From the IMG/VR virus record IMGVR_UViG_3300006217_002764: a DNA stretch of 64,000 nucleotides; one strand, written 5' to 3'. This stretch comes from a virus. Lineage: Duplodnaviria > Heunggongvirae > Uroviricota > Caudoviricetes. Below the pieces are notes generated by a model. It saw nothing but the letters and a program-made list of their open reading frames with translations. It was not told the DNA's origin and searched no databases. Made by a program: the position numbers and the translations under genes. Shown here one piece after another: positions 9,175 to 44,115 of this stretch; within the stretch, counting starts at the first letter, position 1, and each line of letters opens with the position of its first letter.

Positions 9175-9367
9175 TCGGTACGGAACAGGTGGAGCGTGCC
9201 GCGTTTGCGCTCATGTGCACGATGACGAATTGGGCGGATGGTGATAGGACGCCGCAAACGGTGAAGCGTGAGTATTGGATGCGGATGAACCCGGACGTCA
9301 AGGAACAGTATTACGGGTGGGCGCGCACCGTATTGGACGCTGCCACCCAAGGCGACGAGGAGGAAGC

Positions 9368-12156: not shown

Positions 12157-13728
12157 CTAGTTTTGTACTAAGTCATGGTACTTACTAGTTCCGGCCAGTT
12201 TCCCGTTGGCTGGTGCGGGTCGCTGTCCACCCGGAGCGCCTGTAACGTCCGGGACCGCGCCGTCTATCGGCTGGTTCCAGCGTTGCCGGAATCGCCAGTC
12301 GAGTAGTTGGCGGGTGTTCTTGCGCGCCTTGGGGCCCGTGTTGTCCGGATGTTGCCACGAACGTCGTGACTGGATGACACGGGCCGCGTTGATGTCGGCG
12401 TGCATGGTTTTGCCGCAGAAACGGCAAGTGAATCTGGCTCGGCTGGCACGGTTCTTTTTGTCCGTGTATCCGCAGCCGGAGCATTCCTGTGACGTGTATT
12501 GTGCGGGTACCTGTTCAACCGTGATGCCCGCGGTTTCCTGTATGGCTTCGAGTTTGCGTTTCAGTGCGGCGCGGCCGGTGCGGGTGATGAGACGGTTCAT
12601 GCGTTTGCTCATGCCGCCTCCCCGGAAGTCGAGGCGTTCGACCACGAGCGTCTTGACTTGTTCGGGGTCGTGTTTCAGGGCGAGCTGGTTGATGATGCGC
12701 CCCACCTCGTTCTTCACGGTTTCGCGGATGCGTCGGTTGAGGCGTTCGTGTTCCCGGTCGCCTTTTCTTTTCAGGCTGCGTTTGGCGAGCCACTGGTCAT
12801 GCTCGATCAGCTGTTCATCCAACACGCGCAGTCGTTCGAGCATTTTTCTGCCGAACAGGTGTCCGTCGCTGGTGGCGAGGAGTGCGTCGGCCATACCGAA
12901 ATCGAGGCCCACGGTGCGTCCGGTGTCGCGTTGTGCACTGTCGGGGATGTCGAGCACGAGACTCATCGAGAAATCCTTCGTGCCCTTGACGCGATGCAAC
13001 TGGACCACGCCGCACATGCCACCACCCCGTGCTACGGCATCCTCATAGGCGTGCTCGAAATGCGTGTTGGCCAGCAAGCCGACTTCGACAGGCTTTCCCT
13101 TGGTGAGGGTACTGGTCTTGACCCACCATGAGACGCGTGGATGGTCTGTGTTGTCTGGACGTTCCGGCTTGGCGACGATACGGTCCAGCACCAACGTATT
13201 CACGCGCCCCATATCGGGAAACCTGTTGCTCTTGGTGGCTTGTTTGACCAAGAGGCGCGCCAGTTTCAACAGGCGTGGCTCCACGTCCACCATGACCTTG
13301 TTCCTGACCTTCATGCCACACGGTACGAGCACACCGTCCTTGTCGGGTTTCCATGGCAGTTGGAACTCGGGTTTCCACCACGCATGCCACTTGTTGACCC
13401 GCAGCAGCACCAGCTTGTCGTCATCCGTCAGGGACGAATCCGTGACGAGATGGCGTACGCGCAGTTCCAGCAACGCCTGCCATGATAGGAGCTGGGTGCG
13501 TACCATGTTGCCCACGCTTTTCATCTGCCGCGCCGACAAGCCCCCAACGCTTGTCTTGTCCGGCAACGCCACATACAAGGGCAGGTCGGCGCCCTGCTGC
13601 AACCGGACATGCCAGTACGCCATCGTTTTCTTCAACGCGTCCCTGAACGGCGCGAACAGCGCGTTAAGCGCGTTAAGCTTACCTGCGTTTAAGTCGAGGA
13701 TTCCATGCAGATACGCGCGCTTCATCAC
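12157..13728 (-). CDS. tnpB: TnpB-like RuvC/zinc-finger protein (IS607-type OrfB)
   Basis: RuvC motifs GLDFG and VVERLDF, C-terminal zinc finger CSGCG...CRFCG, and DINAARVI. Confidence 0.8.
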   Translation of the reverse strand: MMKRAYLHGILDLNAGKLNALNALFAPFRDALKKTMAYWHVRLQQGADLPLYVALPDKTSVGGLSARQMKSVGNMVRTQLLSWQALLELRVRHLVTDSSLTDDDKLVLLRVNKWHAWWKPEFQLPWKPDKDGVLVPCGMKVRNKVMVDVEPRLLKLARLLVKQATKSNRFPDMGRVNTLVLDRIVAKPERPDNTDHPRVSWWVKTSTLTKGKPVEVGLLANTHFEHAYEDAVARGGGMCGVVQLHRVKGTKDFSMSLVLDIPDSAQRDTGRTVGLDFGMADALLATSDGHLFGRKMLERLRVLDEQLIEHDQWLAKRSLKRKGDREHERLNRRIRETVKNEVGRIINQLALKHDPEQVKTLVVERLDFRGGGMSKRMNRLITRTGRAALKRKLEAIQETAGITVEQVPAQYTSQECSGCGYTDKKNRASRARFTCRFCGKTMHADINAARVIQSRRSWQHPDNTGPKARKNTRQLLDWRFRQRWNQPIDGAVPDVTGAPGGQRPAPANGKLAGTSKYHDLVQN

Positions 13729-19890: not shown

Positions 19891-20733
19891 ATGACAAGCA
19901 CGAACCCCAACGCGGAACCGTACGATTACGAAATCACCTCAACTCCACACGCAGACACCTCGTTAGACGAGTACAACACCAACAGCAGTGAACCAACGCT
20001 ATGGGATTTCGAAGGGTTCACATCCGGTACACCGTTCCTGTTGGAGCGCCCCAGCCGGTATATCACGCGCATGCGCCGCAGCATGAATTCTCTACTGGCC
20101 CTCCCTGAGCGGGACACACAGGAAAGCATCGACTCCCGTATCCTGTGGTCCCCCATCGTGGAACTCCCCATCCCACTTGCGCAAAAAGACGACACCGCCC
20201 GCACCATGGCCGCCGTCTCATACCCCTTCATGTATGTACCGCAGAACCAGCCCCTCACCGGCAACATGGACCCTGAACGGTATGCGTTGACATTGCATGT
20301 GTACCTCGCCGCCACACAGGCCATCGTCTACGACACGCAGCATATCCATGACTTGTATACGTATGGCGTGGATGCTAGTTCATTCCTCGTTGATGATGCC
20401 ACATGGGAGCGGGCTGGAATGGTCGCGGATTATTACGCTGGTGCTTTGCGTGATTTGAACATTGGACGGTTGACCCAGTTTATGCTCGCCGACATGGACA
20501 ATGAATATGATGCATGGGATCGGCTCATGCTGACATGGGGTATCGATGTGGAGGACAAGCAGCATCCGGGCGAGGTATCCGAATCCATTGTTGGCCAATT
20601 GTTGGATCGTGGTGCCCAAGCCAGTACGCGGATGGCATCCATGTACGATAAGGTCTTCGACTTGTCAGATACGGAAAGTGGCACTGTGCTCCCATACAAT
20701 GCTTTCCACGAGAATGACACTGACGGTCTCTGA
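19891..20733 (+). CDS. hypothetical acidic protein
   Basis: 280-aa ORF 16 nt downstream of the ATPase. Confidence 0.5.
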   Translation: MTSTNPNAEPYDYEITSTPHADTSLDEYNTNSSEPTLWDFEGFTSGTPFLLERPSRYITRMRRSMNSLLALPERDTQESIDSRILWSPIVELPIPLAQKDDTARTMAAVSYPFMYVPQNQPLTGNMDPERYALTLHVYLAATQAIVYDTQHIHDLYTYGVDASSFLVDDATWERAGMVADYYAGALRDLNIGRLTQFMLADMDNEYDAWDRLMLTWGIDVEDKQHPGEVSESIVGQLLDRGAQASTRMASMYDKVFDLSDTESGTVLPYNAFHENDTDGL

Positions 20734-20821
20734 CGCCCTATTGGCAGACGCAATGAGGAAGGTTTCCTCGTGCATGAGATAGGCGAGGACGGTATATGAG
20801 GTATACCGTACAGCCAGTACA

Positions 20822-20971
20822 GGAGTTTCCATGCCTGTACGGGGATGCCCAGGTCGAACCGCCCCTCCCACTCACGCAGGTAGGAGTGTCCTCGCTTGTA
20901 CGGGGCATCCGCAGACCGTCCACCAGACGAATCTCACCAGTCTGGAGTGTCCTCGCTTGTACGGGGCATCC
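20822..20971 (-). CRISPR. mini CRISPR-like array (3 repeats of 28 nt, 2 spacers of 32-33 nt)
   Basis: Identical repeats GGAGTGTCCTCGCTTGTACGGGGCATCC at 20883-20910 and 20944-20971 (plus strand). A degenerate copy GGAGTTTCCATGCCTGTACGGGGATGCCC sits at 20822-20850. Spacers are unique. The degenerate repeat is distal to a conserved promoter motif at 21236-21266 on the minus strand, which gives a leader of about 270 nt. Confidence 0.4.
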
Positions 20972-21235
20972 CCTATCCAAACCGTTGCAAAACCAAGGTT
21001 CTGCAACATTAGGGAACCCGAAAAACTTCAGCTTGCCCCACACGCGTGGACATGACCACCTTGCGGCGGTCAGCTTCAAGTCTCACACCACCAGTTCGAC
21101 GGCTGCTTGATAGGCGTTTCATCGAACCTGTCCAGCAAACCCGAAGGTGGCTGGCACTGGGTTCTCCACGCCCGTTGTCCGTATCCGCCACACTCTCGAA
21201 AAGTGTGGTTCGTGTCCTGCACAAGCCTCTTATGC

Positions 21236-21266
21236 AGCTGTCTTCAGTATAGCACATACATGTTTA
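21236..21266 (-). promoter_or_regulatory. conserved promoter motif upstream of the CRISPR-like array
   Basis: Minus-strand reading gives catgtatgtgcTATACTgaagacagc. Partial match to the element-wide motif. Confidence 0.4.
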
Positions 21267-21482
21267 TGAAGCGGGCCGTCGCGTCAACATCACCCCGTCC
21301 ACGTATTGTTCGACCATCATCGGCTCGTGTATGTACGCTGGCGCCCGTGTTCGCCGTTGTGCATGCCAGTTGGCGCCATATCTTGCGGTGCCATGATGCG
21401 GCTCGCCGTACATACAGTGTGATTTGCACCAGACATGGGAGCCGTGAAATACTGAAACCGTACACAAAACGGGAAGACAACG

Positions 21483-21932
21483 GTGGGAATCATGGCTGAC
21501 GTGTTCGATGTCGCGGCGTACATCCTGAACAAACAGGGACGCATGACGACGATGAAATTGCAGAAACTCTGCTACTACGCGCAGGCATGGCATCTGGTAT
21601 GGGCGGAGAAACCACTGTTCGACGAACCCATTCAAGCGTGGGCGAATGGCCCGGTATGCCCAGAACTGTACCAAGCACATAAAGGGAAGTTCGACATCGA
21701 TGCCCGTGAGCTTCCACAGGGCAACCCGCAGGCATTGACGGATCGAGAACGCAGGGACATCGACGAGGTTCTACGTTTCTATGCGCCCATGGGAGCCTAT
21801 CACCTCAGTGAACTCACCCATCATGAGGATCCCTGGAAGGATGCCCGCGGGGACCTACCGGTAGGGGCCAGATGCAATACGGTCATAACCTTGGCCGCAA
21901 TGGCCGAATATTACGGTTCTATCACTGACTGA
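21483..21932 (+). CDS. Panacea-domain (SocA/GepA-like, DUF4065) protein, putative antitoxin
   Basis: Hallmark KLQKLCYYAQAWHLVW plus downstream conserved aromatic and Pro residues. Confidence 0.65.
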   Translation: MGIMADVFDVAAYILNKQGRMTTMKLQKLCYYAQAWHLVWAEKPLFDEPIQAWANGPVCPELYQAHKGKFDIDARELPQGNPQALTDRERRDIDEVLRFYAPMGAYHLSELTHHEDPWKDARGDLPVGARCNTVITLAAMAEYYGSITD

Positions 21933-22438
21933 TGTCACGCAGACGATCATTGCGGAACCGTGCAAGGCCACAAGCCTCGGCGGAGAGGGTTCCGCAGGCG
22001 GCGCTGAACAGACACGGCGCGTATCGGGTACCCAAGAACGCTGACAGTTTCGACGGTCTGCCGGACAAGCATCATATCGTGTTCCGTTTCGACTGTGTGG
22101 ATATAGAAGCCGATTGCCCGTGGTCGTTGGCGGACATCACCCAGACCGATCACGTGACGTTGCTGCGCAAACTCCGAGAGTTCGAATGCTGCACCCTCAG
22201 TGAAATACTCAGTCCAAGCTATAAGGCTTTCCACCTGTATACGAATTTCAGTGATTGTCCGAACAGGAAGGCGGTGAGGCGTCTGGGTGAGCGCTACGAG
22301 TGCGACAGTGATGCCATCGCACGGTTCCGTCTTGGCGGGACGGAACGGTTGTATGGTTTTCTTGTCGGCCATGAGTTTCATATTCTGTGGTGGGACAAGG
22401 ATCATGAGATCTGGCCGAGCAGGAAGAAGAATACCTGA
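21932..22438 (+). CDS. hypothetical protein translationally coupled to the Panacea gene (candidate toxin)
   Basis: TGATG overlap with the Panacea gene. 168 aa. No recognisable fold. Confidence 0.45.
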   Translation: MSRRRSLRNRARPQASAERVPQAALNRHGAYRVPKNADSFDGLPDKHHIVFRFDCVDIEADCPWSLADITQTDHVTLLRKLREFECCTLSEILSPSYKAFHLYTNFSDCPNRKAVRRLGERYECDSDAIARFRLGGTERLYGFLVGHEFHILWWDKDHEIWPSRKKNT

Positions 22439-22492
22439 AGACCGTTGGGCGTCCACATGGGATGCACTTGCCTCGGCGGTAGAACGCCAAGC

Positions 22493-23521
22493 TCACGCTC
22501 GCATTTTATCGTCGATGCTGATTGGGTCGAGTATGTGCACGACGCTTCCGGTGTTCAGGCTTTTGTAGGTCAGTTGGCGGGTGAATTCGGCGAATGCCGC
22601 GTCCGTGAGGCTTTGCGCGAGCATGTGGTGTCGCATGCCGCGTTTGATGTTGACTTTCTGTATGTTGATGACGGCGTATTGGTCCACAAGCCGGCGGGTC
22701 AATTCGTGCAGCATCGTGTCACGCAACGCTTTGATGCGCTTGTGGATGCGGTTGACCTTGCGGCGTTGCTCCTCGTAGCGGACGCTTCCACGGGCTTTGC
22801 GTGACAGGTCACGGGACGCCTTGCGCAACCCCTCCAACGCCTGCCGGTATGGTCGCGGCAGATCGATCCGGGTACCGTCCGACAGGATGATGTGTTCCAA
22901 GGTGAACACGCACCAGATGTCGGGTTTTGTGTTCACGGGTGGCGCCGGTTCGGGGGTTTCGCACAATAGGCTCGCGTACCATGTGTCGTGTTCGCAACGG
23001 ATGGTGGTGGTTTTCACCTTGCGGCCGGCCACGAGCCGGTGGATGTTGCGCAAGGTGTGCACGCGTCCGATGCGGGGCAGTCTGATGCCATGGTCGTCGG
23101 GGATGGTGATGGCGCTGAATGCGAACGATTTGACCGCGCTACGGGGTTTGAACTTGGGGAAGCCGACGGGGGATCCTTTGCGTTTGCCTGACAGGCTTTT
23201 GAGGAAATTGCTGGATGCTTTGCCGAGGTTGTCGAACGCGCAGTTATAAACCTGTGAGGCGACCTCATCCCACCATGGGGCCAACCGGTCGCGGTTGGCG
23301 CGCCACCAGTAGCCGAGTTTGATGACATTGTTGTCGATTTTGATGAGGTCTTTCTTGCCGACGCCTGATTCGACCTGCGCCTTGCGCTCCTCCAACTGTT
23401 CCTTCATATGTTGCAACGCGGCGTTGTACGCGAAACGTGCCGCGCCCGCGTACATGCGGAACATGCGCTCTTGTACGGGGGTGGGGTCGAGCGGGACTTT
23501 CACCGCCTCATACGTGGTCAT
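22493..23521 (-). pseudogene. tnpB: TnpB-like gene truncated before the zinc finger
   Basis: N-terminal TnpB signature VKVPLDPTPVQERMFRMYAGAARFAYNAAL and RuvC-II region INIQKVNIKRGM...LTDAAFAEF. The ORF stops right after ILDP, where the YTSQ..C..CG zinc finger should follow. Confidence 0.55.
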
Positions 23522-24072
23522 GACCGGTTCTCATTGTTGGTTGTGGTGCTTTGCACCAATGCGGTTTTGAGCGACACATATCCCATTAGTGGATGTGGAC
23601 GCGGACCGCCGTAGGTGCGGATGGACATGTCCCCGTCCGTGTCGAACATGGCGACCAGTTCTCCGGCTTCCCCGAGCGCGAGTAGCGCCGACTGCCAGAG
23701 CAATGCCGACCGCAACGCACCATCCGGGTTCGCGCCACCGTAGGCATCCATGTTGCCGCATCGTTGCCGGAGCGCATCCAACGCGACGGCCGCACGATTG
23801 TCGTATTCCGACGCCCAACCTTCGTAGAACACCCGACCGTCAGGCGCTACGACGAGCCATGCGGCGCTGTCGTAATCGTCAAAGCGCCTGCGCATACGGT
23901 ACGCCTGTTCGTGGCTCAGCAGTCCGTGTTTCTCCAGCTCGACATAGATGTCCCCATGTGGGCGGATGAGATTATGGGGAACATCAGGCAAGGGCGTCAG
24001 GTCGTCGATCAGCGCACTGGTCTTCGGTTCGAGAATATCCGGTATCATGACGGTTCCCTCCCTTGGGATCAA
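23518..24072 (-). CDS. hypothetical protein
   Basis: 184-aa ORF in the minus-strand operon. Confidence 0.45.
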   Translation of the reverse strand: MIPREGTVMIPDILEPKTSALIDDLTPLPDVPHNLIRPHGDIYVELEKHGLLSHEQAYRMRRRFDDYDSAAWLVVAPDGRVFYEGWASEYDNRAAVALDALRQRCGNMDAYGGANPDGALRSALLWQSALLALGEAGELVAMFDTDGDMSIRTYGGPRPHPLMGYVSLKTALVQSTTTNNENRS

Positions 24073-24479
24073 CAGTATTGGAGCAGGTCTCGCACGGTCA
24101 GTCCGTGCAGGCCGGTGGCGTGGTCGGTCAGGTACTGTTCGACCTCATGGTTCATATCGTCATCGGGTATGCCTTGTTTCAGTGCTTGGAATTGCATGTC
24201 AATGATGGTGTCATGCAGCTCGTTGTGTCTGTCCCACCATGCGCGGGCGCGTTGCTTCACGTTCTTCGCGCTTGTTTTGCGTGCGCGCATCGTGCGCTTA
24301 TACCCGTGCGCACGATGCGCGGCTTGCGCGGTTTTGTATCCATGGCCTTGCGCGTCATCGACAATCCGGCCCGTGGACTCGTCCACGAGCCGCCAACGGG
24401 TCTCTGTACGGTCAAAATCGTATTCATCCCCGGCGGGAACCATGACCGGGTACGGGACGGCTTTAATCTGGCTGGTCAT
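24069..24479 (-). CDS. hypothetical protein
   Basis: 136-aa ORF with overlapping start and stop codons. Confidence 0.45.
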   Translation of the reverse strand: MTSQIKAVPYPVMVPAGDEYDFDRTETRWRLVDESTGRIVDDAQGHGYKTAQAAHRAHGYKRTMRARKTSAKNVKQRARAWWDRHNELHDTIIDMQFQALKQGIPDDDMNHEVEQYLTDHATGLHGLTVRDLLQYC

Positions 24480-25075
24480 GATGCCTCCTTACTGGCGTGG
24501 TCGTACAAATACAATGCGTCCCGTTTGACCTCCACCCGTTCCAGCATGTCGCCCAATTGGCGGGTGTCGAACCCGTGCGAGCAGACCAGGTGGTAGCCGT
24601 TGATAGTGGCGATGACGGTGACCGCGCCCGGCGCCTCACTCTCCTCGTAGATGCGTTCGATGCGCCGGCGCAACGCTTCGGCACGGATCCAGCTTGGATC
24701 GTCCACGTCGAGCAGCCAGTGGCGTTCGGCGCGTTGTTCGGGTTGCATGGCGACGCTCAGGGCCATCTGATCGAGGGTGGCCATGTCCATGTCCGTCGTG
24801 TCGATGAGCACATGCATGAGCGCGGTGCGAGTCTTCGCGTTGTCGCGTGCGTTGACAGACACGTAGAAGCGGCTCACCTCGCCCGGTTTGCCTTGGTTCA
24901 CGAACCGGGTGAACCGGTCGCGCAGTTCGAAGGGTCTCTTGCGGGTCAGGAACGACTCGCACCGTTCTACGAACCCGTCCACCTGTTGGTTGTCCTTGCG
25001 GCGGGAACGGAACAGGACACCATGCAACGGACGGCTGTCGGCGGTGATGCGTTTGGGATGGTAATGGTTGCTCAT
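24476..25075 (-). CDS. hypothetical protein
   Basis: 199-aa ORF. ATGA overlap with the kinase-ligase gene. Confidence 0.45.
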   Translation of the reverse strand: MSNHYHPKRITADSRPLHGVLFRSRRKDNQQVDGFVERCESFLTRKRPFELRDRFTRFVNQGKPGEVSRFYVSVNARDNAKTRTALMHVLIDTTDMDMATLDQMALSVAMQPEQRAERHWLLDVDDPSWIRAEALRRRIERIYEESEAPGAVTVIATINGYHLVCSHGFDTRQLGDMLERVEVKRDALYLYDHASKEAS

Positions 25076-26805
25076 GATGCGGTCTCCTTGTCATGGTGGG
25101 CCAGCCAGTCGGTGACTTGGGTCATGTCCACCGCATCCCGGTCGAATGCGCTTTGATGGTAGACGAGTTGTTCGCGTGGGATCGCAGCCAACACGGCCCG
25201 CACCAACCGCGAGCGTTCCGAATCGTCCTGCGGGACGGGCTTGCCGCGCAGCAGGATGTTCTCCAGTACGGGGCGCAAACGTTTCGACTGGAGGTACAGG
25301 TCGGATTTGACTTTCACCATGTACCCGTCCGCACCGTAGATGACCACGCCCTCGCGTGATGATAGGGCCGCATCATGCAAGGCTTGGCGCAGTCCGGTCT
25401 CGTCCTGAATCATGTACCAGTCTGGACGGTACGGAAACAACGTGTTCAACAGGCTGTCCGCCTGCATGTCGATGGCGAATTCCACATGGTTGTGGATTGC
25501 ATGCAGGTAATACAGGCGTGACTTGTCGTAGTGGATGATGTGCTGGTCGGATTCCGCGTCCACGATCTCACAGGCCACGGTGACATCATGCGCACGCATG
25601 GTCTGCCATATCTCATGCCGCGTGTATGGGTCGGGCAGGTCACGGAGGAACGCTTTCTCAATCAGCGGCGAATAGTCGGTCTGGCCGCTCTTCGAATAGA
25701 AACGGAACACGCCCTCCTGTTCGGTTGCGCCGATCAATCCGAGGAAACCGTTCTCCTTCATCTCCACGCGCGCCGGGTACGTCATATGTTCCAGCACGTT
25801 GTCAAGACTGGTCTGCTTGTTCTCCCCGAGGTTGAAGAACTTGTCGAACCCACGCATCACCACGTCACCGGCGCTGTTGAGGAACAGGCCGCGGGCCTTC
25901 GACGAGTATTCGTCCCATGCGTGGTTGCGGAACGCGTCCCGGGTGAAATTGCACGCCCATAGATCTTCCTCGCCACGTACCGGCATGACGCGCACATTCG
26001 GGTTGTCGCGCATCTGGTCCAACAGGGTCGGTTCCGGTTCGGGGCAGGGCAGGTCGTCCGTGTTGCTCATCCGCCAGTCCAACCACTGTTGCGATGCACC
26101 GTGGCACAGCCAAGTGCAGTACACGTCGGACGGCATGAGTGGATTGTTCACCGCGGGCACACACAGCATGTCAGCGGTGTGGTTGCGGCCGTGCTGGGAG
26201 GGGAGAAACGCTTTGACCATGCGGAACGTGTCCACGCTCAACGGTTTGCATGCCATCCGGTACGCGCCCATCGCGTCGACCAACGCGAATGTGTGGCTGT
26301 GTTCGCTGGGACGCCACATGTGGCGTCCGGCGGGTTCGACGGGCACATGCACCCACTGCATGGGTGTGGAGATACTGTCCGTATACCGTTCGTACTGGGC
26401 CCGCAAATACTCCTCGGGCACCTGGTCGTCCTCGGCGCGATGGCGGTTGCGTTCCAGCAACGTGTCCAACGGTACGGGGAATGCCACGGTTTGCACGTCC
26501 GCGTTGCAGTCGGCGGCCAACCCTACCAGTTCATGCACGCGTTCCATGTTGGCGTTCTGTGCGTCCATGATCACGTTCAGGCCTTTGCGCAACGCGTCGC
26601 AGACCATGGCGTGCGCCGTACGCACAATCAGTTTCTCTGTTGTCGCAGTGCGATGCGCATGGTAGGCGGCCAGACTTCCCGCCGTCATACGTCGCAACCC
26701 ATCCAAGGACACGATGATCGTATCTGGATGGTTCGTCACGCACTTGCGCGCCCATGTGCTTTTGCCGCTCGCGGGCAGCCCGCGCAGGATGACCAACGTC
26801 GCCAT
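25072..26805 (-). CDS. polynucleotide kinase (P-loop) fused to RNA ligase (nucleotidyltransferase)
   Basis: N-terminal Walker A VILRGLPASGKSTWARK (T4 Pnk/AAA_33-like kinase). C-terminal ligase motif I KENG (RVEMKENGFLGLIG). Confidence 0.6.
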   Translation of the reverse strand: MATLVILRGLPASGKSTWARKCVTNHPDTIIVSLDGLRRMTAGSLAAYHAHRTATTEKLIVRTAHAMVCDALRKGLNVIMDAQNANMERVHELVGLAADCNADVQTVAFPVPLDTLLERNRHRAEDDQVPEEYLRAQYERYTDSISTPMQWVHVPVEPAGRHMWRPSEHSHTFALVDAMGAYRMACKPLSVDTFRMVKAFLPSQHGRNHTADMLCVPAVNNPLMPSDVYCTWLCHGASQQWLDWRMSNTDDLPCPEPEPTLLDQMRDNPNVRVMPVRGEEDLWACNFTRDAFRNHAWDEYSSKARGLFLNSAGDVVMRGFDKFFNLGENKQTSLDNVLEHMTYPARVEMKENGFLGLIGATEQEGVFRFYSKSGQTDYSPLIEKAFLRDLPDPYTRHEIWQTMRAHDVTVACEIVDAESDQHIIHYDKSRLYYLHAIHNHVEFAIDMQADSLLNTLFPYRPDWYMIQDETGLRQALHDAALSSREGVVIYGADGYMVKVKSDLYLQSKRLRPVLENILLRGKPVPQDDSERSRLVRAVLAAIPREQLVYHQSAFDRDAVDMTQVTDWLAHHDKETAS

Positions 26806-26832
26806 CGTTCGATTCCTTTCCGTAAGTCGTGT

Positions 26833-27570
26833 TCAGCGGTGCCGTTTCAGCGTGGGATGCGGCTCCGGCGGGAAGGAGATCAACCGTTCCGCGTCGACGA
26901 AATGCCACAGCACCTGTTCCTCGCTCACCGGCCGCATGTTCCATGCGTCCACACCGATGTTGAGCTCACGCGGGTTGGCGAACTCGAACGGGTCCGTGGA
27001 GTGTGTATGCCCGTGCAGCAGCCAGCTGAAGCCGTTGTCCACGAACGCATACTGGGCGTATTGCGGGTCGCATGCGTTCGTGCTCAACCCGCTGGGCGTG
27101 GGCTGTTCGAAATGGTGGCGGAATTGGAAGTGCGACAAGAGCACGTTGAGTTTGCCGATGGTGGTCGCACCCCCGGTATCGACGGTGACGAACACGTCCA
27201 ACAGTTGCCGCATCTGCGAGTATCCGCAGCGCAGGTCCTCATGGTTACCGAGGATCAGGTGCCGCCTGCCGCGTGGCACGCGCAGCCCTTCGAGGGTTTG
27301 CAACGCGCCGGTCAGGCTTGCCCGTCCGCCGGTGCTCAAGTCCCCCAGCACGTAGAGTTCGTCTTCCTCCCCGACCCGTTCGTTGATGTTGTCGATGATG
27401 GTGTGGTCGTGGCGCTGCCAGTCCACCATGTCAGCGAGTTTCCAACGGTTCGTGCGCGCGTATTCGCGTAGGTCGGCGGCGGCCAGATGCGCGTATTCAG
27501 GTTTTGCGTATCCACGCAACGCGGCCACGAACGGGTGGTGCAAATGCAAATCGGAAGTGAAATACTTCAT
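26833..27570 (-). CDS. calcineurin-like metallophosphoesterase
   Basis: Motifs SDLHLHH, YVLGDLS, GNHE and GHTH. Start MKYFTSDLH at 27570. Confidence 0.7.
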   Translation of the reverse strand: MKYFTSDLHLHHPFVAALRGYAKPEYAHLAAADLREYARTNRWKLADMVDWQRHDHTIIDNINERVGEEDELYVLGDLSTGGRASLTGALQTLEGLRVPRGRRHLILGNHEDLRCGYSQMRQLLDVFVTVDTGGATTIGKLNVLLSHFQFRHHFEQPTPSGLSTNACDPQYAQYAFVDNGFSWLLHGHTHSTDPFEFANPRELNIGVDAWNMRPVSEEQVLWHFVDAERLISFPPEPHPTLKRHR

Positions 27571-27583
27571 GGCTTGTTCTCCC

Positions 27584-28030
27584 TTAGTCTTTGCTGATGG
27601 ACTCGTCGATGGGGGCCCAACCAGTGTTCTCGTCGTACAGGTCGCGCACGGACCATGCATCATTGACGAACAGGTACACGTATTCGGCCCACATGCCACG
27701 TGCGGCCTCCACGAATGCGTCACGGTCCACATATACGGCGGCCTGCATGGCATCATTCTTGCCGTAGGTGCTGGCGGCCGCTGTTTTCGAAGGCGGATAG
27801 CCGTTCTTGTCGATGTCGCGGCGTTTCTCCGCATCGTCCATGAATGCGGCAGGCGTCTGCCCGAGCACGTCGATCTCACCCAACGCCATGAGCTCCTCCA
27901 CTTGCACCCCATCTGTGTAATGGTCGCGCAACACTTTCCCGTTGTATGACGGGTACCCGTCGCACTGGCAGTAGATGGCCGTGATGGAACCGTCCCCATG
28001 CTGCATGCCGATCAAGCTACGAGTAGTCAT
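27584..28030 (-). CDS. hypothetical protein
   Basis: ORF immediately upstream of the phosphoesterase. Confidence 0.4.
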   Translation of the reverse strand: MTTRSLIGMQHGDGSITAIYCQCDGYPSYNGKVLRDHYTDGVQVEELMALGEIDVLGQTPAAFMDDAEKRRDIDKNGYPPSKTAAASTYGKNDAMQAAVYVDRDAFVEAARGMWAEYVYLFVNDAWSVRDLYDENTGWAPIDESISKD

Positions 28031-28179
28031 CCTTTTCTCCTTTGTGTCGATGTCTTTTGTGAATACGGATTCAGGCTTTCCCGCACTTGGATATCTTGCC
28101 CACCCCGCCATTGATCGTGACGTGTTCGCTTCTCATGATTACTCCTTGTCTCGGTCTCTGATTTCGAACTCGTTGAGGA

Positions 28180-28506
28180 TTACTTTTCGCTGTGGAGCTC
28201 CTTGGGGATTTGCCTGATGACCGCGCTCATCATCTCCAGCCAGTCGGCGAGGATGTCAGCGTGTGCGGCATCGCAGTGGATTTCCAACACGGGCGGTTTG
28301 CCGTTGTGGGGTGCGCGGAAGCTCACGACCTGTGTGGTGTGGGTGCGCGCGCCCTGTTGCGTGGTCATGGTCAGGTCGATGCTGTTGGGGCGCGTCCCCT
28401 CGTCGTCGTATCGCCTCATGTTGAGCGAGTCTGCCATAAAATCCCAGTACGATTCGTCTTCCGGGTCCGGGTGTTCCGGGGTCAGATTGTTGACGAACAC
28501 TCGCAT
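28180..28506 (-). CDS. hypothetical protein
   Basis: Start MRVFVNN. The overlapping 247-aa ORF in another frame was judged an artifact. Confidence 0.4.
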   Translation of the reverse strand: MRVFVNNLTPEHPDPEDESYWDFMADSLNMRRYDDEGTRPNSIDLTMTTQQGARTHTTQVVSFRAPHNGKPPVLEIHCDAAHADILADWLEMMSAVIRQIPKELHSEK

Positions 28507-28547
28507 TTCGTCTCCTTGCAATGGTTGGTGATGTGTGTCTTGGTGCT

Positions 28548-28943
28548 TCAGGCAGCCAATGGCAGACGGTTCGCATGACGCGCGCGGCGGATAGTCTCCG
28601 CGAGGGTCTCCCCGCTGCATTCCAGCCCTGAAATCTGCTCGTACAGGTCGCTGGTCGGACAGGTGTGGCTGCCGTCGTCCCAATAGGGGTAGAGGTCGTC
28701 ATGCAGGTCGCTACGGTCGAGCAGTGTGCCGGCCCGTGAGGAAACCTCAAGTGCGGCGTCCTGCAAGGCGGCGGCGTACCCGTCGAACAGGTCCTCCCCC
28801 AGTCGCATACGGTTGCTTTCCACGAGCTTCCACTGTGCGGCCACCTCGTCGTACCCTGTTTCCAGATCGTCGATGGTGCCCGTCGGGTCGACAAGGCCCG
28901 CGACCTCATCAAGGGGGTACAGGCCGTTGATGCCATACGCCAT
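28548..28943 (-). CDS. hypothetical acidic protein
   Basis: 131-aa ORF with the promoter motif immediately upstream at 28955-28986. Confidence 0.5.
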   Translation of the reverse strand: MAYGINGLYPLDEVAGLVDPTGTIDDLETGYDEVAAQWKLVESNRMRLGEDLFDGYAAALQDAALEVSSRAGTLLDRSDLHDDLYPYWDDGSHTCPTSDLYEQISGLECSGETLAETIRRARHANRLPLAA

Positions 28944-28954
28944 GATGTGCTTCC

Positions 28955-29030
28955 TCCTGTGGTTTTGTGGATAATCTCAGTATAGCACATATATCGCATG
29001 TTCTCCCCCGGCGTGTTCTCCTATACTGGA
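28955..29030. promoter_or_regulatory. divergent conserved promoter motifs
   Basis: ttgtggataatctcagtatagcacatat (minus promoter) and cctatactggaaccatccacaaaa (plus promoter for the hydrolase). Confidence 0.5.
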
Positions 29031-29072
29031 ACCATCCACAAAACCACCCCGAACCCATACAAGGAACGCCCC

Positions 29073-30362
29073 ATGTCCTCCAAAACCGGCAGCATGATCG
29101 CAGCAGGCGCCGCAGCAGCGATCGCACCAATCCTCATAATGACCACCATGACCACCAGCATGCTCTCCGGCATGGGCACCATCATCGCCACCGAAGCAGG
29201 GAACGCCGCAATCAACGCCAGTGCCGCCGATTGCGAAGAGACCACGGAAACCACCGTTGCGACGATAAGTATCGGCAAGCTGGAAGGCGACAGCACTGCC
29301 GCCCGTCTCGCGAACGCGTTCTCCAAGGCCGGGTTCTCCAAGGAAGCAACTGCGGGAATGATGGGCAATGTGCAATGGGAGTCGGGGTTCCGCGCCGATT
29401 CCATCAATGAGATCGGCGCCACGGGAATCATGCAATGGTATCCAGGCAGCAAGATCACCGACTGGTTCAACACGCAGGACGACCTCAAGGGCCGGCCGGC
29501 CACTGACGAGGAAGGCCAGATCCGCATGGCGGTGTGGGTCGGACAGGACACCAGCTCGTGGAACAATGTGTTTCTATCCAAGGCCAAGGCCGAGGGGATG
29601 CGCGCCATCGGCGACGATCTCTACCGGTCGTGGCGGGAGGCGTCCAGTCCGGAGGATGCGGCCCTCGCTTGGCATTGGGGGTTCGAACGTGCCGACGATT
29701 CGACCGGGCCACGACGGCAGACCGCCGCACGCGGTTTCTACGACAAGGGGCTGGAAGGGCTTTCATTCACTGGGAAACCCAACAGTGACAACACCGCCGA
29801 GACAACCTCAACGCGGTGCAGCACAACCAACGGAGGATCCAGTGGGAACGTCAAAGCAGGATCCGCGGGCGGTGCGCCGGATGATACCGACAATTATGCG
29901 TGGATGTGTTCCGCGATCGGCGTATGCAAGGACGGCGACGGGTTCGAAGGCAGCCCGAAAGTCAAGTATCCGCACAACGTGTCAAGGTACCAGTGCGTGT
30001 GGTATGCGTGGAACCGTCTCGGTATGATCCACGGCAACGACGGATGGGATACGGTCATGGGCAACGGTGGCGTCATCGCCTCCAATCTGCAAGGAAAACC
30101 CGGATGGACCGTGGACGGCTCTCCCCACCCCGGGGACGGAGTGAGCCAATTGGGTGGCGCATTGGGCGGGGACACGTCGGTCGGGCACGTCGCCGTCGTC
30201 GAGGATGTGAAGACGGAAGGCGGCAAATGGAAGATACGCATCAGCGAGGGCAACTGCGACGGTACCGGTGCTGGCAACTGGACCGGATACCGGACCCGTT
30301 GGCTCACACAGGACCAGTTCGCGGGCGCCCAGGTGTTCTTCCGCAACGGCGCATGGAAATAG
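29073..30362 (+). CDS. secreted/membrane cell-wall hydrolase (lysozyme-like domain plus CHAP amidase/peptidase domain)
   Basis: N-terminal hydrophobic segment and a muramidase-like region (MGNVQWESGF...IMQW). C-terminal CHAP-type Cys...His signature (QCVWYAWNRLG ... GHVAVVEDV). Confidence 0.65.
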   Translation: MSSKTGSMIAAGAAAAIAPILIMTTMTTSMLSGMGTIIATEAGNAAINASAADCEETTETTVATISIGKLEGDSTAARLANAFSKAGFSKEATAGMMGNVQWESGFRADSINEIGATGIMQWYPGSKITDWFNTQDDLKGRPATDEEGQIRMAVWVGQDTSSWNNVFLSKAKAEGMRAIGDDLYRSWREASSPEDAALAWHWGFERADDSTGPRRQTAARGFYDKGLEGLSFTGKPNSDNTAETTSTRCSTTNGGSSGNVKAGSAGGAPDDTDNYAWMCSAIGVCKDGDGFEGSPKVKYPHNVSRYQCVWYAWNRLGMIHGNDGWDTVMGNGGVIASNLQGKPGWTVDGSPHPGDGVSQLGGALGGDTSVGHVAVVEDVKTEGGKWKIRISEGNCDGTGAGNWTGYRTRWLTQDQFAGAQVFFRNGAWK

Positions 30363-30368
30363 GCGCCG

Positions 30369-31307
30369 CTAACTGGCGCATGACGCGATGCAGATGCCCA
30401 TTTTCCCAGCGTCCCACAGCGTCCAATCCACGTTGTCCATCTCGCCCATGTTCTCCACGCCGCGCAACCACCGTCCGGCCGGCAGATGAGCGAGGCCCAT
30501 GCGCGGCCGTCCTTTGACAGGGATGACTTGGCGGTGTCCGTCGCCGAGGTTGGCAGGCATGTCCTCGTCCCATTCGTTCAGATAGGGGTTGATCCACCAA
30601 TAATCAGACTTGTGGTGCTGGATCGATGTCACACGTCCGTCAGCATCGAAGGTCAGGGTGTCTTTGACCGGGTAGGTGCGCCATGCGGGGGTGATCGCAT
30701 ACCAGTCGCCGTAATGGTAGCTGTCCCCATCCTGCAACAGGATGGCGCGCACATCGCCGGTGACCTCCACTGTTCCGTCGTCAAGCACACGTGCTTGTGG
30801 CTCGCCGCTCCAACGGCTTCCGTAGGACCATGCTTCATGCGCCCACCATTGGCCCATGGAGGGTGATTGAGTGCAAGCGCCGTTCATATCCAAAGTGCAG
30901 GGGACGCTGGACGTGTCGGGGCCCCATGTGTCCTTGATGTCGAGTGAGGTGAGGCTTTTCAACGGGTTGCCGCTGATTGGGGTAGCGTGCAGTTGGTTGA
31001 GTGCTTCATCTACGTTCTTGTACGCGTATGTGGCTGCTGGCTGGTTGGCGTCCGCACCCCAATCGCGCATGGCATGTTCGACCTGCACCGCCATATTGGC
31101 ACGGGCCTGTCGTTCCTCCTCGGTCAATGAGGGTTGCTGGGGTGTGCTTTTCGCCTGCGATGGCGCCACGGTTGACACAGAGGGTGACGCAGACGAGGAC
31201 GGGTTCTCTCGGGTGGCGGTGCTCAGGATCACCCCCACAATGATGGCCGTCAAGGCGATGATCGCGATGACGGCCGAGGTTTTCTTTCCGTTACCCATAC
31301 ACGTCAT
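30369..31307 (-). CDS. membrane-anchored hypothetical protein
   Basis: N-terminal TM helix AVIAIIALTAIIVGVIL followed by a Ser/Pro-rich linker. Confidence 0.5.
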   Translation of the reverse strand: MTCMGNGKKTSAVIAIIALTAIIVGVILSTATRENPSSSASPSVSTVAPSQAKSTPQQPSLTEEERQARANMAVQVEHAMRDWGADANQPAATYAYKNVDEALNQLHATPISGNPLKSLTSLDIKDTWGPDTSSVPCTLDMNGACTQSPSMGQWWAHEAWSYGSRWSGEPQARVLDDGTVEVTGDVRAILLQDGDSYHYGDWYAITPAWRTYPVKDTLTFDADGRVTSIQHHKSDYWWINPYLNEWDEDMPANLGDGHRQVIPVKGRPRMGLAHLPAGRWLRGVENMGEMDNVDWTLWDAGKMGICIASCAS

Positions 31308-31717
31308 CCCTTGGCGGGGCGAACAATGTGTTTGATGGCGCTCGATGGGATGTAGACGTCTGAACCGTTGACGGCGCGGACATGGGTGAGCTTGGAGGCT
31401 TCGAAGTCAACCGGTTCATCGACGGTGACCGATGCGCCATCGTCAAGGATGACGCGCGTCATACCCTGTGTCTGCTCAACCGGGATGATGCTTACTGTAT
31501 CGAGAACAGCTTGTGTGGGGACAACGCGCAGTCCGGGGGTGAACATGTCATGGCCAAAGAAGGGTGGGCGTAGGCAATCAGGTTCCTCATTCCAGCGGAT
31601 GTCCCCGGCTTCGTTGATGCCCGTGACGTTGATGACGGTCTCTATGTAGCCTTTGAGGGGATTGACCCAAGCAACCAGATAGGCGCCGGTGTGGTCGATG
31701 GTTTTGCTGTCGATCAT
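31304..31717 (-). CDS. hypothetical protein
   Basis: 137 aa. Promoter motif at 31738-31768 immediately upstream. Confidence 0.5.
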   Translation of the reverse strand: MIDSKTIDHTGAYLVAWVNPLKGYIETVINVTGINEAGDIRWNEEPDCLRPPFFGHDMFTPGLRVVPTQAVLDTVSIIPVEQTQGMTRVILDDGASVTVDEPVDFEASKLTHVRAVNGSDVYIPSSAIKHIVRPAKG

Positions 31718-31830
31718 ATGTGTGACCCTTTCCGTGGTTTGTGGACAAGTTCAGTGTAGCATATTATGGATGTAATGCCGGTATAGGCCAGTACAATAAA
31801 CAACCAACGCAACCCGATGGGAGGGCGGAC

Positions 31831-32802
31831 GTGACTACAAAGAAAACCGATGGGAAACACAGCGGCAAACCACCGATCCCGATGACCATGCGGCAACTCG
31901 AACTCGCCGCCGACATCGACACGCATACCCCCACACCGCAACAGGTCGGCTACGGTCATTCGATTCTCACCGCGACCCTTTACCCCGCCGTCCCCCCGGC
32001 GCCCGGCACTGACTTCGTCTCCAAACGCAACGGCAGTTTCGAATACATGCTCGAGGCGGGCGTGGATGAAGAGACCCATGAACGAGATTTCCCATATGGC
32101 AAATACCCGAGGCTCATCATGGCGTGGATGGCGAAACAGATACGTTCCGCTCATGGCCATAGGACGGACACGGTGGACCCCGAGACGAGGACCATCACCA
32201 TCCCCACCATCAACCGCCTATGTGACGAGATGGGTGTGGGACATGGCGGCAAGACCGCAGAAGCGGTGCAGGAGCAGTTGAGGCGATTGCTTGCGGCGCG
32301 CATCAGCGTCCGCCGTCGTGGGGGCTTCTCCGAGCGGAAGGGCAACAAGGTCAGCCAGATCCTCTACCTGCCGTTCGCCCGCGCCATCGAGTATACGGAC
32401 GATGAGCGGGGGCGTGCCTATTCGGGTGCGAGGTTCATATTGACGGAGGACGCGTATGAACGGCTTAAATTGGAGAGTGCCCCGTTTGACACGAGGGTCA
32501 GCGAGTATCTGTTGGCAGGACGTTCTGTGATGCCGTATGACCTGTATCTGTGGCTCAACGGGTCGATGGCGGGGTTGACCCATCCGGTCACGGTGTCATG
32601 GGAATGGCTGTATGAGCAGTTCGGTGATGGGATTGCGAGTATGAGCCGGTTCAAGGCGACGTTCAAGCGTGCGTTGGCGAAGGTGCTGGAGGTGTATCCG
32701 GCTGCGAATGTGTCGGTTCCCCCGCGGGGCGAGGGTGTGGTGCTCAAGCCGTCGTTGACAAGTGTGGAGATGCGTGATCCGAAACATGGTTTGTCGCGAT
32801 AG
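31831..32802 (+). CDS. putative replication initiator (Rep-like DNA-binding protein)
   Basis: GTG start after RBS GGGAGGG. The gene ends inside the first iteron copy and is followed by a tandem iteron array and an AT-rich stretch. No catalytic motif. Confidence 0.45.
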   Translation: MTTKKTDGKHSGKPPIPMTMRQLELAADIDTHTPTPQQVGYGHSILTATLYPAVPPAPGTDFVSKRNGSFEYMLEAGVDEETHERDFPYGKYPRLIMAWMAKQIRSAHGHRTDTVDPETRTITIPTINRLCDEMGVGHGGKTAEAVQEQLRRLLAARISVRRRGGFSERKGNKVSQILYLPFARAIEYTDDERGRAYSGARFILTEDAYERLKLESAPFDTRVSEYLLAGRSVMPYDLYLWLNGSMAGLTHPVTVSWEWLYEQFGDGIASMSRFKATFKRALAKVLEVYPAANVSVPPRGEGVVLKPSLTSVEMRDPKHGLSR

Positions 32803-44042: not shown

Positions 44043-44115
44043 GTGGGCTGGCGGGATTCGAACCCGCGACCTCCGGATTAAACGTCCGGTGCTCTGTCCT
44101 CTGAGCTACAGCCCC
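44043..44115 (-). tRNA. tRNA-Lys(TTT)-like with unusual G33 (anticodon loop cgTTTaa)
   Basis: Hand-folded. D-stem gctc/gagc, anticodon stem ccgga/tccgg, T-arm gcggg-TTCGAAT-cccgc. 1:72 is G:A. Confidence 0.45.

Follow-up and report, generated by a model that had tools for sequence, protein, structure and literature searches.

A polynucleotide kinase-RNA ligase gene and a linked metallophosphoesterase gene as a probable RNA end-healing and end-sealing module of a Bifidobacterium megaplasmid-like element

In the conflicts between bacteria, phages and plasmids, toxins and defence nucleases that cut RNA are a major weapon, and repair modules are the counter-weapon. The question raised by the locus described here is whether two adjacent genes in a stretch of 64,000 nucleotides (hereafter the window) form such a repair module, as an earlier note on this DNA had proposed. 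Our analyses indicate that they probably constitute a two-gene RNA end-healing and end-sealing module, which is carried by a conjugative-megaplasmid-like element of Bifidobacterium (pseudolongum-like). It must be noted that this kind of system is already known, since the pair is annotated in RefSeq as "metallophosphoesterase" and "RNA ligase" in a 169-kb plasmid of B. longum, and the joint presence of RNA-repair and tRNA genes in phages is a published theme of comparative genomics.

Both open reading frames (ORFs) were found at the positions that the earlier note had given, and the features of the locus are provided in Table 1. The metallophosphoesterase (MPE) gene is located directly upstream of the kinase-ligase gene, on the same strand, and each start is preceded at 8 nt by a Shine-Dalgarno-like sequence (AAGGGAGA for the MPE and GGAAAGGAA for the kinase-ligase). 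The start of the 199-aa ORF overlaps the stop of the kinase-ligase gene by 4 bp, which corresponds to translational coupling, while 13 nt separate the end of the 175-aa ORF from the MPE start, also on the same strand. The whole run of genes is closely packed on one strand and provided with ribosome-binding sites, and no terminator-like site of the minus strand was detected within it. Among the loci compared, the 199-aa ORF is kept only in the closest relative (L001, 90% identity); it received no assignment in Pfam, NCBIfam, PDB or PADLOC and is possibly an accessory gene of the cassette. The sole homologue of the 175-aa ORF among the same loci was a partial match (L002), and no PDB match was obtained for it. 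The genes flanking the pair had no matches in Pfam, NCBIfam or PADLOC, and PADLOC identified no ribonuclease, toxin or defence gene beside the cassette that would make the breaks.

Table 1. Organization of the kinase-ligase and MPE locus, in coordinates of the window.
Feature	Position	Strand	Remarks
Kinase-ligase ORF	25072..26805	-	ATG start, 577 aa
MPE ORF	26833..27570	-	245 aa, read from an ATG inside a longer, mechanically called ORF
Kinase domain, residues 1-148	26362..26805	-	T4-Pnk-type polynucleotide 5'-OH kinase, predicted
Variable kinase/ligase insert, residues about 149-257	26035..26361	-	No Pfam match
Ligase adenylyltransferase domain, residues 258-500	25306..26034	-	Rnl1/Trl1-type N-subdomain, motifs I to V
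Ligase C-terminal helical domain, residues 501-577	25075..25305	-	Tentatively Trl1-LIG-like; K508 and R511
199-aa ORF	24476..25075	-	phrog_8839 4.5e-29, function unknown
175-aa ORF	27584..28111	-	phrog_1987 5e-22, function unknown

The N-terminal domain of the 577-aa protein belongs to the T4 Pnk/CthPnk kinase family according to profile, structure-sequence and fold searches, in agreement with the T4-Pnk-like kinase claimed previously. In Pfam, AAA_33 was matched on residues 4-144 (E 2.2e-25, 90 bits) and Zeta_toxin reached only 23 bits, while PHROGs gave a polynucleotide kinase match of 4.5e-28. The best solved-structure match of the kinase was T4 Pnk (1ly1), with an E value of 5e-19 for the family profile, which also matched Pnkp1 (1.6e-15) and CthPnk (1e-10). 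Zeta toxin (0.44) and adenylate kinase (3e-3), the two unrelated kinases contemplated at the outset, were outscored by the polynucleotide kinases in this profile and were rejected. In addition, the model of the domain matched 1ly1 with a TMt of 0.88 (Foldseek). The Walker A P-loop, GxxxxGK[ST], is present as G9-LPASG-K15-S16 and aligns with GCPGSGKST of T4. In T4 Pnk, D35 is the general base, R38 binds the 5' end and R126 is the lid arginine. The conserved K15, S16, D35, R38, D81 and R123 of the kinase align with K15, S16, D35, R38, D85 and R126 of the T4 enzyme, and G9, S13, G14, K15, D35, R38 and R123 were invariant in the family alignment (A1).

The C-terminal half, for which a non-ligase family had also been considered, is a member of the Rnl1/Trl1 adenylyltransferase family by both sequence and predicted fold. 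RNA_lig_T4_1 (PF09511) was matched on residues 303-504 (E 3.5e-29), and PHROGs gave an RNA ligase match of 2.4e-63. The KENG sequence pointed out in the earlier note is motif I, and its K350 was invariant (146 of 146 aligned relatives). Motifs I, III, IV and V (K350-E-N-G, E413, E485-G486 and K498-V-K500) were each kept in 146-147 of 147 relatives. R305, K322, F323, K350, G353, K372, E413, E485, G486, K498 and K500, each conserved in at least 140 of the 147, share alignment columns with residues of T4 Rnl1. [quoted passage not shown] The family is large: in bacteria, phages and plasmids it comprises no fewer than 803 clusters (50% identity, E<=1e-10). The insert that separates the kinase from the ligase, missing or unrelated in short-form homologues of 460-490 aa (alignment A1), was predicted as beta-rich (pLDDT 57-91). 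The AF2 model of the whole protein had a pLDDT of 88.9, and its Foldseek matches were Trl1-LIG, T4 Rnl1, T4 Pnk and CthPnk. No measured activity for any member of the kinase-ligase family was found in the searched literature.

The ligase is nearer to fungal Trl1-LIG (Rnl6) than to T4 Rnl1. Fungal Trl1-LIG gave the best PDB matches of the ligase half; the family profile matched Trl1 at 2e-18 and T4 Rnl1 at 1.4e-7, and the family HMM scored 80-91 bits with fungal Trl1-LIG fragments vs 42 bits with T4 Rnl1. The same preference was obtained by Foldseek (E 1e-15 and TMt 0.65 for Trl1-LIG, 6e-12 and 0.53 for T4 Rnl1), with about 380 columns aligned against the full Trl1-LIG (TMt 0.62-0.65). Only 77 residues follow motif V, modelled as four helices (502-518, 530-541, 544-547 and 561-576) and two short strands; in the Rnl6 clade, the distinctive C-terminal domain that follows the adenylyltransferase has five helices. 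In hhalign, the C-domain of the family was aligned with that of fungal Trl1 over 65 collinear columns with a score of 22.0 (P 2.6e-4) but a low probability (42%), and none of 30 column shuffles scored above 15.8; against the C-domain of T4 Rnl1, only 14 columns were aligned (score 12.4, P 0.06). The Rnl1-specific C-terminal domain of about 120 aa, to which tRNA specificity is attributed in T4 (PMC11404444), had no counterpart in the 577-aa protein by hhalign.

This likeness raises the question of whether the chemistry is also that of Trl1. According to this alternative, the MPE would act only as a cyclic phosphodiesterase that leaves 3'-OH/2'-PO4 ends, and the ligase would need the 2'-PO4, like the tRNA ligases of fungi and plants, and give a 2'-phosphorylated junction, whose later clearing would be the work of a Tpt1-type enzyme unless it is retained against re-cleavage. 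In Trl1, a sulfate that mimics the 2'-PO4 is bound by Asn150, His227, Arg334 and Arg337 (PMC6379707), and mutations of the His-Arg-Arg triad demonstrated that it enforces 2'-PO4 specificity (PMC11404444). The residues aligned with the four are N352, H422, K508 and R511 (hmmalign, with the RxxR placed on K508/R511), three of them being the same residue and K508 standing for R334. The positions were kept in 143, 142, 145 (K or R) and 145 of 147 family members, respectively, and are occupied by D, I, H and K in T4 Rnl1. These counterparts, near-invariant over 148 members of the family, make a 2'-PO4-dependent sealing pathway in bacteria possible, as judged from sequence. Furthermore, a single mutation is enough for the MPE of CthPnkp to produce 2'-PO4 ends, and yeast Trl1 seals its product (PMC1920235). 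However, the DxH of our MPE is intact, unlike that of the reprogrammed CthPnkp H189D, and no Tpt1/KptA homologue was detected when the window and 32 related loci, 482 kb in total, were searched with a probe validated with PF01885. It must also be considered that a lysine replaces R334, that the match between the C-domains had the low hhalign probability indicated above, and that the pair in the C-domain of T4 Rnl1 is basic as well (H, K), so it may serve general RNA backbone binding. Given these data, Trl1-like chemistry is a tentative alternative that we regard as rather unlikely.

The 245-aa protein is a binuclear metallophosphoesterase, and the calcineurin-type neighbour of the earlier note was recovered by the Metallophos match of Pfam (E 1.9e-6) and by the phosphoesterase family phrog_547 (5.4e-36). 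The metal-binding motifs DxH, GD, GNH[DE], H and GHxH are all present, and their residues in D7-L-H9, G76-D77, G108-N109-H110-E, H147 and G187-H188-T189-H190 were invariant in 62 homologues. The AF2 model (pLDDT 94) showed the MPE fold; its best PDB match was 1xm7, a structure of unknown function, and no PDB match was obtained by sequence. A lambda-phosphatase/CthPnkp type was rejected, as close homology was found neither by sequence nor by fold: motif II is GDLSTGG and not GDxxDRG, lambda-Pase ranked 33 by fold with the CthPnkp phosphatase outside the top 50, and BLASTP against the MPE domains of Twort and Goe11 was not significant. Because the enzyme is not of this type, we infer its role as a 2',3'-phosphoesterase from linkage and not from homology; it is predicted to heal the 3' end, as a 2',3'-cyclic phosphodiesterase, a phosphomonoesterase or both.

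The linkage is as follows. In 20 of 20 relatives with upstream DNA, which span chromosomal, phage-like and plasmid contexts, a homologous MPE was located directly upstream of the kinase-ligase on the same strand or was fused to it, and at these loci the two frames overlap or nearly abut. Two relatives (P0073 and P0036) are single MPE-kinase-ligase polypeptides, whose N-terminal domains are 54-55% identical to the 245-aa MPE. Moreover, the ligase family occurs in several permutations: kinase-MPE-ligase, kinase-MPE with a separate ligase, and an MPE split from a kinase-ligase. The first one, found in Twort ORF008, SPbeta-like phages and B. castoris, was the commonest (77 of the 150 best cluster representatives). 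Every other architecture of the family also includes an MPE, and the three activities, always found together, are closely linked in evolution. In this regard, the unfamiliar domain order remarked on in the earlier note is indeed unlike those of T4 and CthPnkp, but it is not isolated, being one permutation of a large modular family. Adjacency and fusion support a functional link between the two genes, and with it the place of the phosphoesterase in the set, at which the earlier note could only guess. An independent role of the MPE, in the degradation of cyclic-nucleotide immune signals or as a protein phosphatase, with the kinase-ligase using another 3'-end healing activity, could account for its membership of a generic actinophage 'metallophosphoesterase' family (including gp66 of L5/D29) whose stand-alone genes are common, with no annotation of an RNA ligase at the match or next to it. 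It would also agree with its closest solved structures, which are not RNA-repair enzymes, and with the proposal of calcineurin-like phosphodiesterases as counter-signalling enzymes of phages (PMC7824862). Nevertheless, the constant adjacency across very different genomic contexts, the two independent covalent fusions and the MPE in all other architectures make this explanation improbable.

The element looks like a conjugative megaplasmid of Bifidobacterium (pseudolongum-like). The processing of DNA ends, for example of 5'-OH/3'-phosphate nicks in plasmid DNA during or after conjugative transfer, would fit its conjugation-type genes (a VirB4-like AAA_10 ATPase, an FtsK-like ATPase and a lysozyme-CHAP hydrolase) and the use of both DNA and RNA by Pnk-type kinases including CthPnk, with Pnk-DNA complexes among the matched PDB entries, but it is very improbable given that the ligase belongs to PF09511 with the RNA ligases Trl1-LIG and T4 Rnl1 as nearest characterised relatives, that the OB domain of DNA ligases is absent, and that the same module is found in chromosomes and in lytic-type phage contigs without conjugation genes.

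In the RNA end-healing and end-sealing module that we favour, the substrate would be RNA, probably tRNA. A transesterifying ribonuclease (an anticodon nuclease, toxin or bacteriocin) would cut it, most plausibly within the anticodon loop of a tRNA, and the resulting ends would be a 2',3'-cyclic phosphate and a 5'-OH. The MPE would then open or remove the cyclic phosphate to expose a 3'-OH, and the N-terminal Pnk domain would move a phosphate from an NTP onto the 5'-OH. Finally, the ligase would self-adenylylate on K350, transfer the AMP to the 5'-phosphate and seal the break. Such a pathway may shield the translation of the element and of its host from RNA-cutting defences or competitor toxins.

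With respect to known systems, the top sequence and fold match of the ligase half is fungal Trl1-LIG (Chaetomium thermophilum 6n0t/6n67/8rbj; Rnl6 clade). The likeness includes the KENG of motif I, a His after motif III, a basic i/i+3 pair on the first helix of a short helical C-domain (77 aa here vs 79 aa, residues 328-406; PMC11404444) and the presence of a ligase and a P-loop polynucleotide kinase in one polypeptide. In contrast, the order is ligase-kinase-CPD in Trl1 and kinase-ligase here, the kinase is T4 Pnk/CthPnk-like and not the GTP-dependent one of Trl1, the 3'-healing is assigned to a separate MPE instead of a fused 2H cyclic phosphodiesterase, and the carrier is a mobile element of a prokaryotic host. 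T4 Pnkp and Rnl1, which repair tRNA-Lys after PrrC cleavage, provide the same three activities (here by homology and linkage), with an Rnl1-type N-subdomain, with conserved residues at every position that is catalytic in T4 Rnl1 and with a carrier that is a mobile element also encoding tRNAs. Apart from the ligase differences indicated above, in T4 the polypeptide of the kinase also contains a HAD/DxDxT phosphatase, and the ligase is separate. The Pnkp-Hen1 systems (Clostridium thermocellum Pnkp; Pnkp1-Rnl-Hen1) also combine a P-loop kinase, a binuclear MPE and an ATP-dependent ligase; the kinase domains are homologous, and the phage and B. castoris relatives share the kinase-MPE-ligase order. 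However, TIGR04075 (bacter_Pnkp) gave 37.3 bits vs a cut-off of 750, on residues 3-142 only (the kinase), the ligase is of the PF09511/Trl1-like and not the Rnl4 type, and the MPE differs as described. The same ligase and kinase families occur in the uncharacterised trifunctional proteins of the Staphylococcus phage Twort (ORF008) and of Bacillus SPbeta-like phages. At the catalytic and N/H/K/R positions compared, their residues are the same as here, and they are 27-30% identical over 67-84% of the query. These differ in being single polypeptides of 720-754 aa from phages of Firmicutes, with an internal lambda-Pase-type MPE unrelated in sequence to the 245-aa one.

Among prokaryotic relatives of the eukaryotic tRNA-splicing ligase, this ligase family is the closest, and it keeps residues that align with those enforcing 2'-phosphate specificity. 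It could conceivably, though doubtfully, be the prokaryotic counterpart of the fungal and plant tRNA ligase clade (Rnl6), sealing only the 2'-phosphate ends that the MPE would make as a cyclic phosphodiesterase. If so, 2'-phosphorylated RNA junctions would have a natural origin in bacteria, and this could explain why a Tpt1/KptA 2'-phosphotransferase, for which we know of no substrate, is retained by many of them. Alternatively, the 2'-phosphate might be kept as a mark that blocks re-cleavage, comparable to Hen1 methylation in Pnkp-Hen1. Were the 2'-phosphate specificity to hold, the family would make the origin of Trl1 and a physiological substrate of bacterial Tpt1 directly accessible to experiments. 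The pair itself is a compact, conserved healing-and-sealing unit carried by Bifidobacterium megaplasmid-like elements, chromosomes and phages. Since the ligases of the family are small and modular, they may also become useful laboratory reagents for sealing RNA with a defined end specificity.

The tRNA array mentioned in the earlier note was confirmed at about 17 kb from the cassette and consists of seven tRNA genes (44043..45785, minus strand). Besides the ligase of the cassette, the element encodes another RNA ligase, which is of the DRB0094/Rnl5 type. In large phages, such a combination of tRNA genes and RNA-repair genes is described as a counter to tRNA-cutting defences (PMC7824862, PMC9503650); by parallel with them (PMC7824862), we conjecture that the array may be tied to the repair cassette.

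The fusion gene and the metallophosphoesterase (MPE) gene were both preceded by Shine-Dalgarno-like sequences 8 nt 5' of their starts. Pfam found two domains in the 577-aa protein, AAA_33 (residues 4-144, E 2.2e-25) and RNA_lig_T4_1 (residues 303-504, E 3.5e-29), and Metallophos in the 245-aa protein (E 1.9e-6); independently, PHROGs returned polynucleotide kinase, RNA ligase and phosphoesterase. The earlier note had described an N-terminal T4-Pnk-like P-loop kinase, a C-terminal KENG ligase, an adjoining phosphoesterase gene and a tRNA array, and had proposed Pfam searches of both genes; the ORFs, the families assigned by Pfam and PHROGs and the tRNA genes all agree with it, and its description of the locus is therefore correct in every particular. 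A variable insert of ~110 aa (residues about 149-257), predicted by the structure model to be beta-rich with moderate confidence, separates kinase and ligase; it gave no Pfam match and is missing from a short form of 460-490 aa, and other long forms have unrelated sequence in its place.

Features of the cassette and of the surrounding element
Feature	Coordinates	Strand	Remarks
Kinase-ligase fusion	25072..26805	-	577-aa ATG-initiated ORF (ORF list)
Insert of the fusion	26035..26361	-	
MPE	26833..27570	-	245 aa, read from an ATG within a longer mechanical ORF; directly upstream of the fusion gene
199-aa ORF	24476..25075	-	4-bp overlap with the kinase-ligase gene, translationally coupled; phrog_8839
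168-aa ORF	21932..22438	+	PADLOC: weak NsnC match (E 6.5e-6); just past the TnpB gene ending the run of the cassette
TnpB / IS605-OrfB-type	22493..23521	-	
TnpB / IS605-OrfB-type	12157..13728	-	
TnpB / IS605-OrfB-type	47600..48898	-	
Second RNA ligase	6285..7394	+	DRB0094/Rnl5 type; N-terminal PHA02142 OB-fold domain and RNA_ligase domain
VirB4-like AAA_10 ATPase	17238..19874	+	
FtsK/AAA ATPase	9275..10579	+	
Phage-tail-lysozyme and CHAP hydrolase	28998..30362	+	
ParA-like	2491..3666	-	
Seven tRNA genes	44043..45785	-	Lys-UUU twice, Trp-CCA, Gln-UUG, Arg-CCG, Arg-UCU, Leu-CAA; several isoacceptors (Lys, Arg, Gln) are well-known targets of anticodon nucleases
Exonuclease VIII (RecE-like)	61982..63967	-	661 aa; C-terminal part phrog_412 (1.8e-54)

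In the ligase domain, R305, K322, F323, K350 (of KENG), G353, K372, E413, E485-G486 and K498/K500 were each kept in 140-147 of 147 diverse relatives; their counterparts in T4 RNA ligase (Rnl1), the sequence of which was verified against the deposited T4 genome, are R54, K75, F76, K99, G102, K119, E159, E227-G228 and K240/K242. Judged by sequence and predicted structure, the domain is nearer to the ligase domain of the fungal tRNA ligase Trl1 (Trl1-LIG, Rnl6 clade) than to T4 Rnl1. Searched against the PDB, the single sequence matched fungal Trl1-LIG at E 3e-10 and T4 Rnl1 not at all (E > 1), while the family profile gave E 2e-18 and E 1.4e-7, respectively; the ligase-domain HMM scored 80-91 bits with fungal Trl1-LIG and 42 bits with T4 Rnl1. 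Foldseek with the AF2 model (pLDDT 88.9) ranked them in the same order (Trl1-LIG, E 1e-15, TMt 0.65, ~380 columns; T4 Rnl1, E 6e-12, TMt 0.53).

RNA ligases are sorted into clades by the domain attached to their adenylyltransferase (PMC6379707). After motif V the window ligase has 77 residues and Trl1 79 (aa 328-406, PMC11404444), whereas T4 Rnl1 has ~120. When the C-terminal segment was compared with the fungal Trl1 C-domain (profile-profile, hhalign; Trl1 fragments gathered by a separate homology search), 65 collinear columns were aligned with a score of 22.0 and P 2.6e-4, against a maximum of 15.8 in column-shuffled controls (n=30), and the T4 C-domain aligned with the family segment over 14 columns only. 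Since the hhalign probability was only 42%, the likeness of this C-domain to that of Trl1 is suggestive, not conclusive. A PDB search with just the last 138 aa returned spurious matches only, and the family profile exposed no second Trl1 alignment block, even at a raised E-value cut-off.

In C. thermophilum Trl1-LIG, Asn150, His227, Arg334 and Arg337 hold a sulfate taken as a mimic of the RNA 2'-PO4 (PMC6379707); mutants of the His-Arg-Arg triad, which is credited with enforcing 2'-PO4 specificity, adenylylate RNA 60- to 580-fold more slowly (PMC11404444). The family HMM alignment places these residues at N352, H422, K508 and R511 of the window ligase. Among the 147 representatives, with the proteins of Twort and of SPbeta-like phages included, asparagine stood in 143 at the first of these columns, histidine in 142 at the second, lysine in 140 and arginine in 5 at the third, and arginine in 145 at the fourth; the columns are conserved to the same degree as the catalytic residues. 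In contrast, the corresponding residues are D, I, H and K in T4 Rnl1, and D, I, H and V in a T4-like ligase from Arthrobacter phage Bauer. On this near-invariance one may base the idea that the window ligase shares the chemistry of Trl1 and would require a 2'-PO4 end left by the MPE. We regard it as possible but less likely than not: Arg334 of Trl1 is replaced by lysine (K508), T4 Rnl1 also carries basic residues at both C-domain positions, and no homologue of the 2'-phosphotransferase Tpt1/KptA was found in the window or in 32 related loci. The Trl1-like signature is the part of the finding that merits experiment.

The metal-binding motifs of the 245-aa MPE were all invariant among 62 homologues, and its structure was confidently predicted as an MPE fold. 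It belongs to the actinophage 'metallophosphoesterase' family that includes L5/D29 gp66, and its best match among solved structures was the uncharacterised Aquifex AQ665; in the fold ranking, lambda phosphatase came 33rd and the CthPnkp phosphatase fell outside the top 50. Homology alone is therefore silent on RNA ends, and it is gene linkage that ties the MPE to them. An MPE homologue was found immediately upstream on the same strand in all 20 kinase-ligase loci with upstream sequence (a few of them redundant). These loci lie on Bifidobacterium chromosomes (about ten species), in Collinsella MAGs, on one contig resembling a phage and on two elements of plasmid type; one locus has a TnpB gene inserted between the two genes. 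In addition, two proteins, P0073 and P0036, carry this MPE (54-55% identity) as a fusion to the N-terminus of the kinase-ligase. The place of the MPE in a repair set, as the earlier note had proposed, is thus favoured by linkage and fusion. An origin by splitting off the internal MPE domain of phage kinase-MPE-ligase proteins was rejected, with no significant BLASTP similarity and a different motif II.

For the N-terminal domain, the strongest match of the family profile was to the kinase domain of T4 Pnk (E 5e-19); PSTK, Pnkp1 and CthPnk came next. Invariant residues are those of the P-loop, D35, R38 and R123, which line up with K15/S16, D35, R38 and R126 of T4; D81, also invariant, lies one alignment column off T4 D85, and the predicted structure matched 1ly1 with a TM-score of 0.88 on target. 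An identity as zeta toxin or adenylate kinase, which the earlier note had named as one way it could be wrong, is ruled out by Pfam and by family-profile scores orders of magnitude weaker.

A ligase-domain search of 1.84 billion cluster representatives recovered 1690 relatives at E<=1e-3, of which 803 reached E<=1e-10. By a motif census, the best 150 of the 1690 comprised 77 kinase-MPE-ligase proteins, 46 ligases alone, 18 of the kinase-ligase form of the window, six MPE-ligase and two MPE-kinase-ligase proteins. Pfam confirmed the kinase-MPE-ligase order for four proteins: Twort ORF008, one from an SPbeta-like phage, a phage-like one from a metagenome and one encoded on a B. castoris chromosome. 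Two stand-alone ligases adjoin kinase-MPE genes. The three predicted activities thus always occur together, in shuffled arrangements, and the split form is a minority permutation, not a unique invention. The genome scan for related loci used an alignment of kinase-ligase homologues narrower than the diverse ligase alignment. Twort ORF008 (locus L005, 4001..6265), Goe11_c00950 (L006, 4037..6199) and the B. castoris protein (L025, 8001..10061) each join a kinase, an MPE of the lambda-Pase type and a Trl1-like ligase in one polypeptide of ~690-750 aa, and their annotation goes no further than 'RNA ligase', 'polynucleotide kinase' or 'hypothetical'; they share the domain order of CthPnkp but differ in ligase clade.

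In the mechanism that we propose, the MPE would heal the 3' end and the Pnk domain the 5' end, and the ligase would seal them via a K350-AMP intermediate. tRNA is the likeliest candidate for the substrate, because of the analogy with T4, the tRNA genes of the element and its second RNA ligase. As countermeasures to defences that cut tRNA, large phages are described as bringing together tRNAs, polynucleotide kinases, phosphoesterases and more than one RNA ligase (PMC7824862, PMC9503650). PADLOC found no defence-system match in the cassette genes and no nuclease partner or known defence system beside them. RefSeq already gives the gene pair generic annotations, and comparative genomics has published on modular sets of RNA-repair genes in phages; in the literature searched, the coverage of which was incomplete, we found no description of the kinase-ligase fusion, of trifunctional phage proteins or of a bacterial Rnl6-type ligase.

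The second ligase matched phrog_968 'RNA ligase' (4e-44) and TIGR02306 (DRB0094 / DraRnl, Rnl5-like) with 102 bits, under the 151-bit cut-off; the element is thus predicted to encode two RNA ligases of different clades. The closest homologues of the fusion protein (87-90% identical) came from Bifidobacterium pseudolongum assemblies and gut metagenomes, and the pair of genes also occurs, at ~44% identity, on a circular B. longum plasmid of 169 kb ('metallophosphoesterase' then 'RNA ligase' in RefSeq). When phage and plasmid collections were searched by Megablast with 20000..32000, nothing was returned, so those sets contain no near-identical deposited relative. The VirB4-like, FtsK/AAA, lysozyme-CHAP and ParA-like genes are typical of Gram-positive conjugative elements and plasmids, and bifidobacterial megaplasmids of the pMP7017 type carry tRNA arrays (PMC10832533). 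From these genes, the B. longum pair and such arrays, we conclude that the window belongs to a conjugative megaplasmid-like element.

Among the relatives, only the nearest, L001, conserves the 199-aa ORF (90% identity); LLDVDD and NGYH, seen by eye, had suggested a primase/nucleotidyltransferase, for which Pfam, NCBIfam, PDB and PADLOC gave no support. The first TnpB gene of the table closes the co-directional gene run that holds the cassette, and in the related loci L001, L009, L011 and L033 TnpB genes flank or interrupt the cassette.
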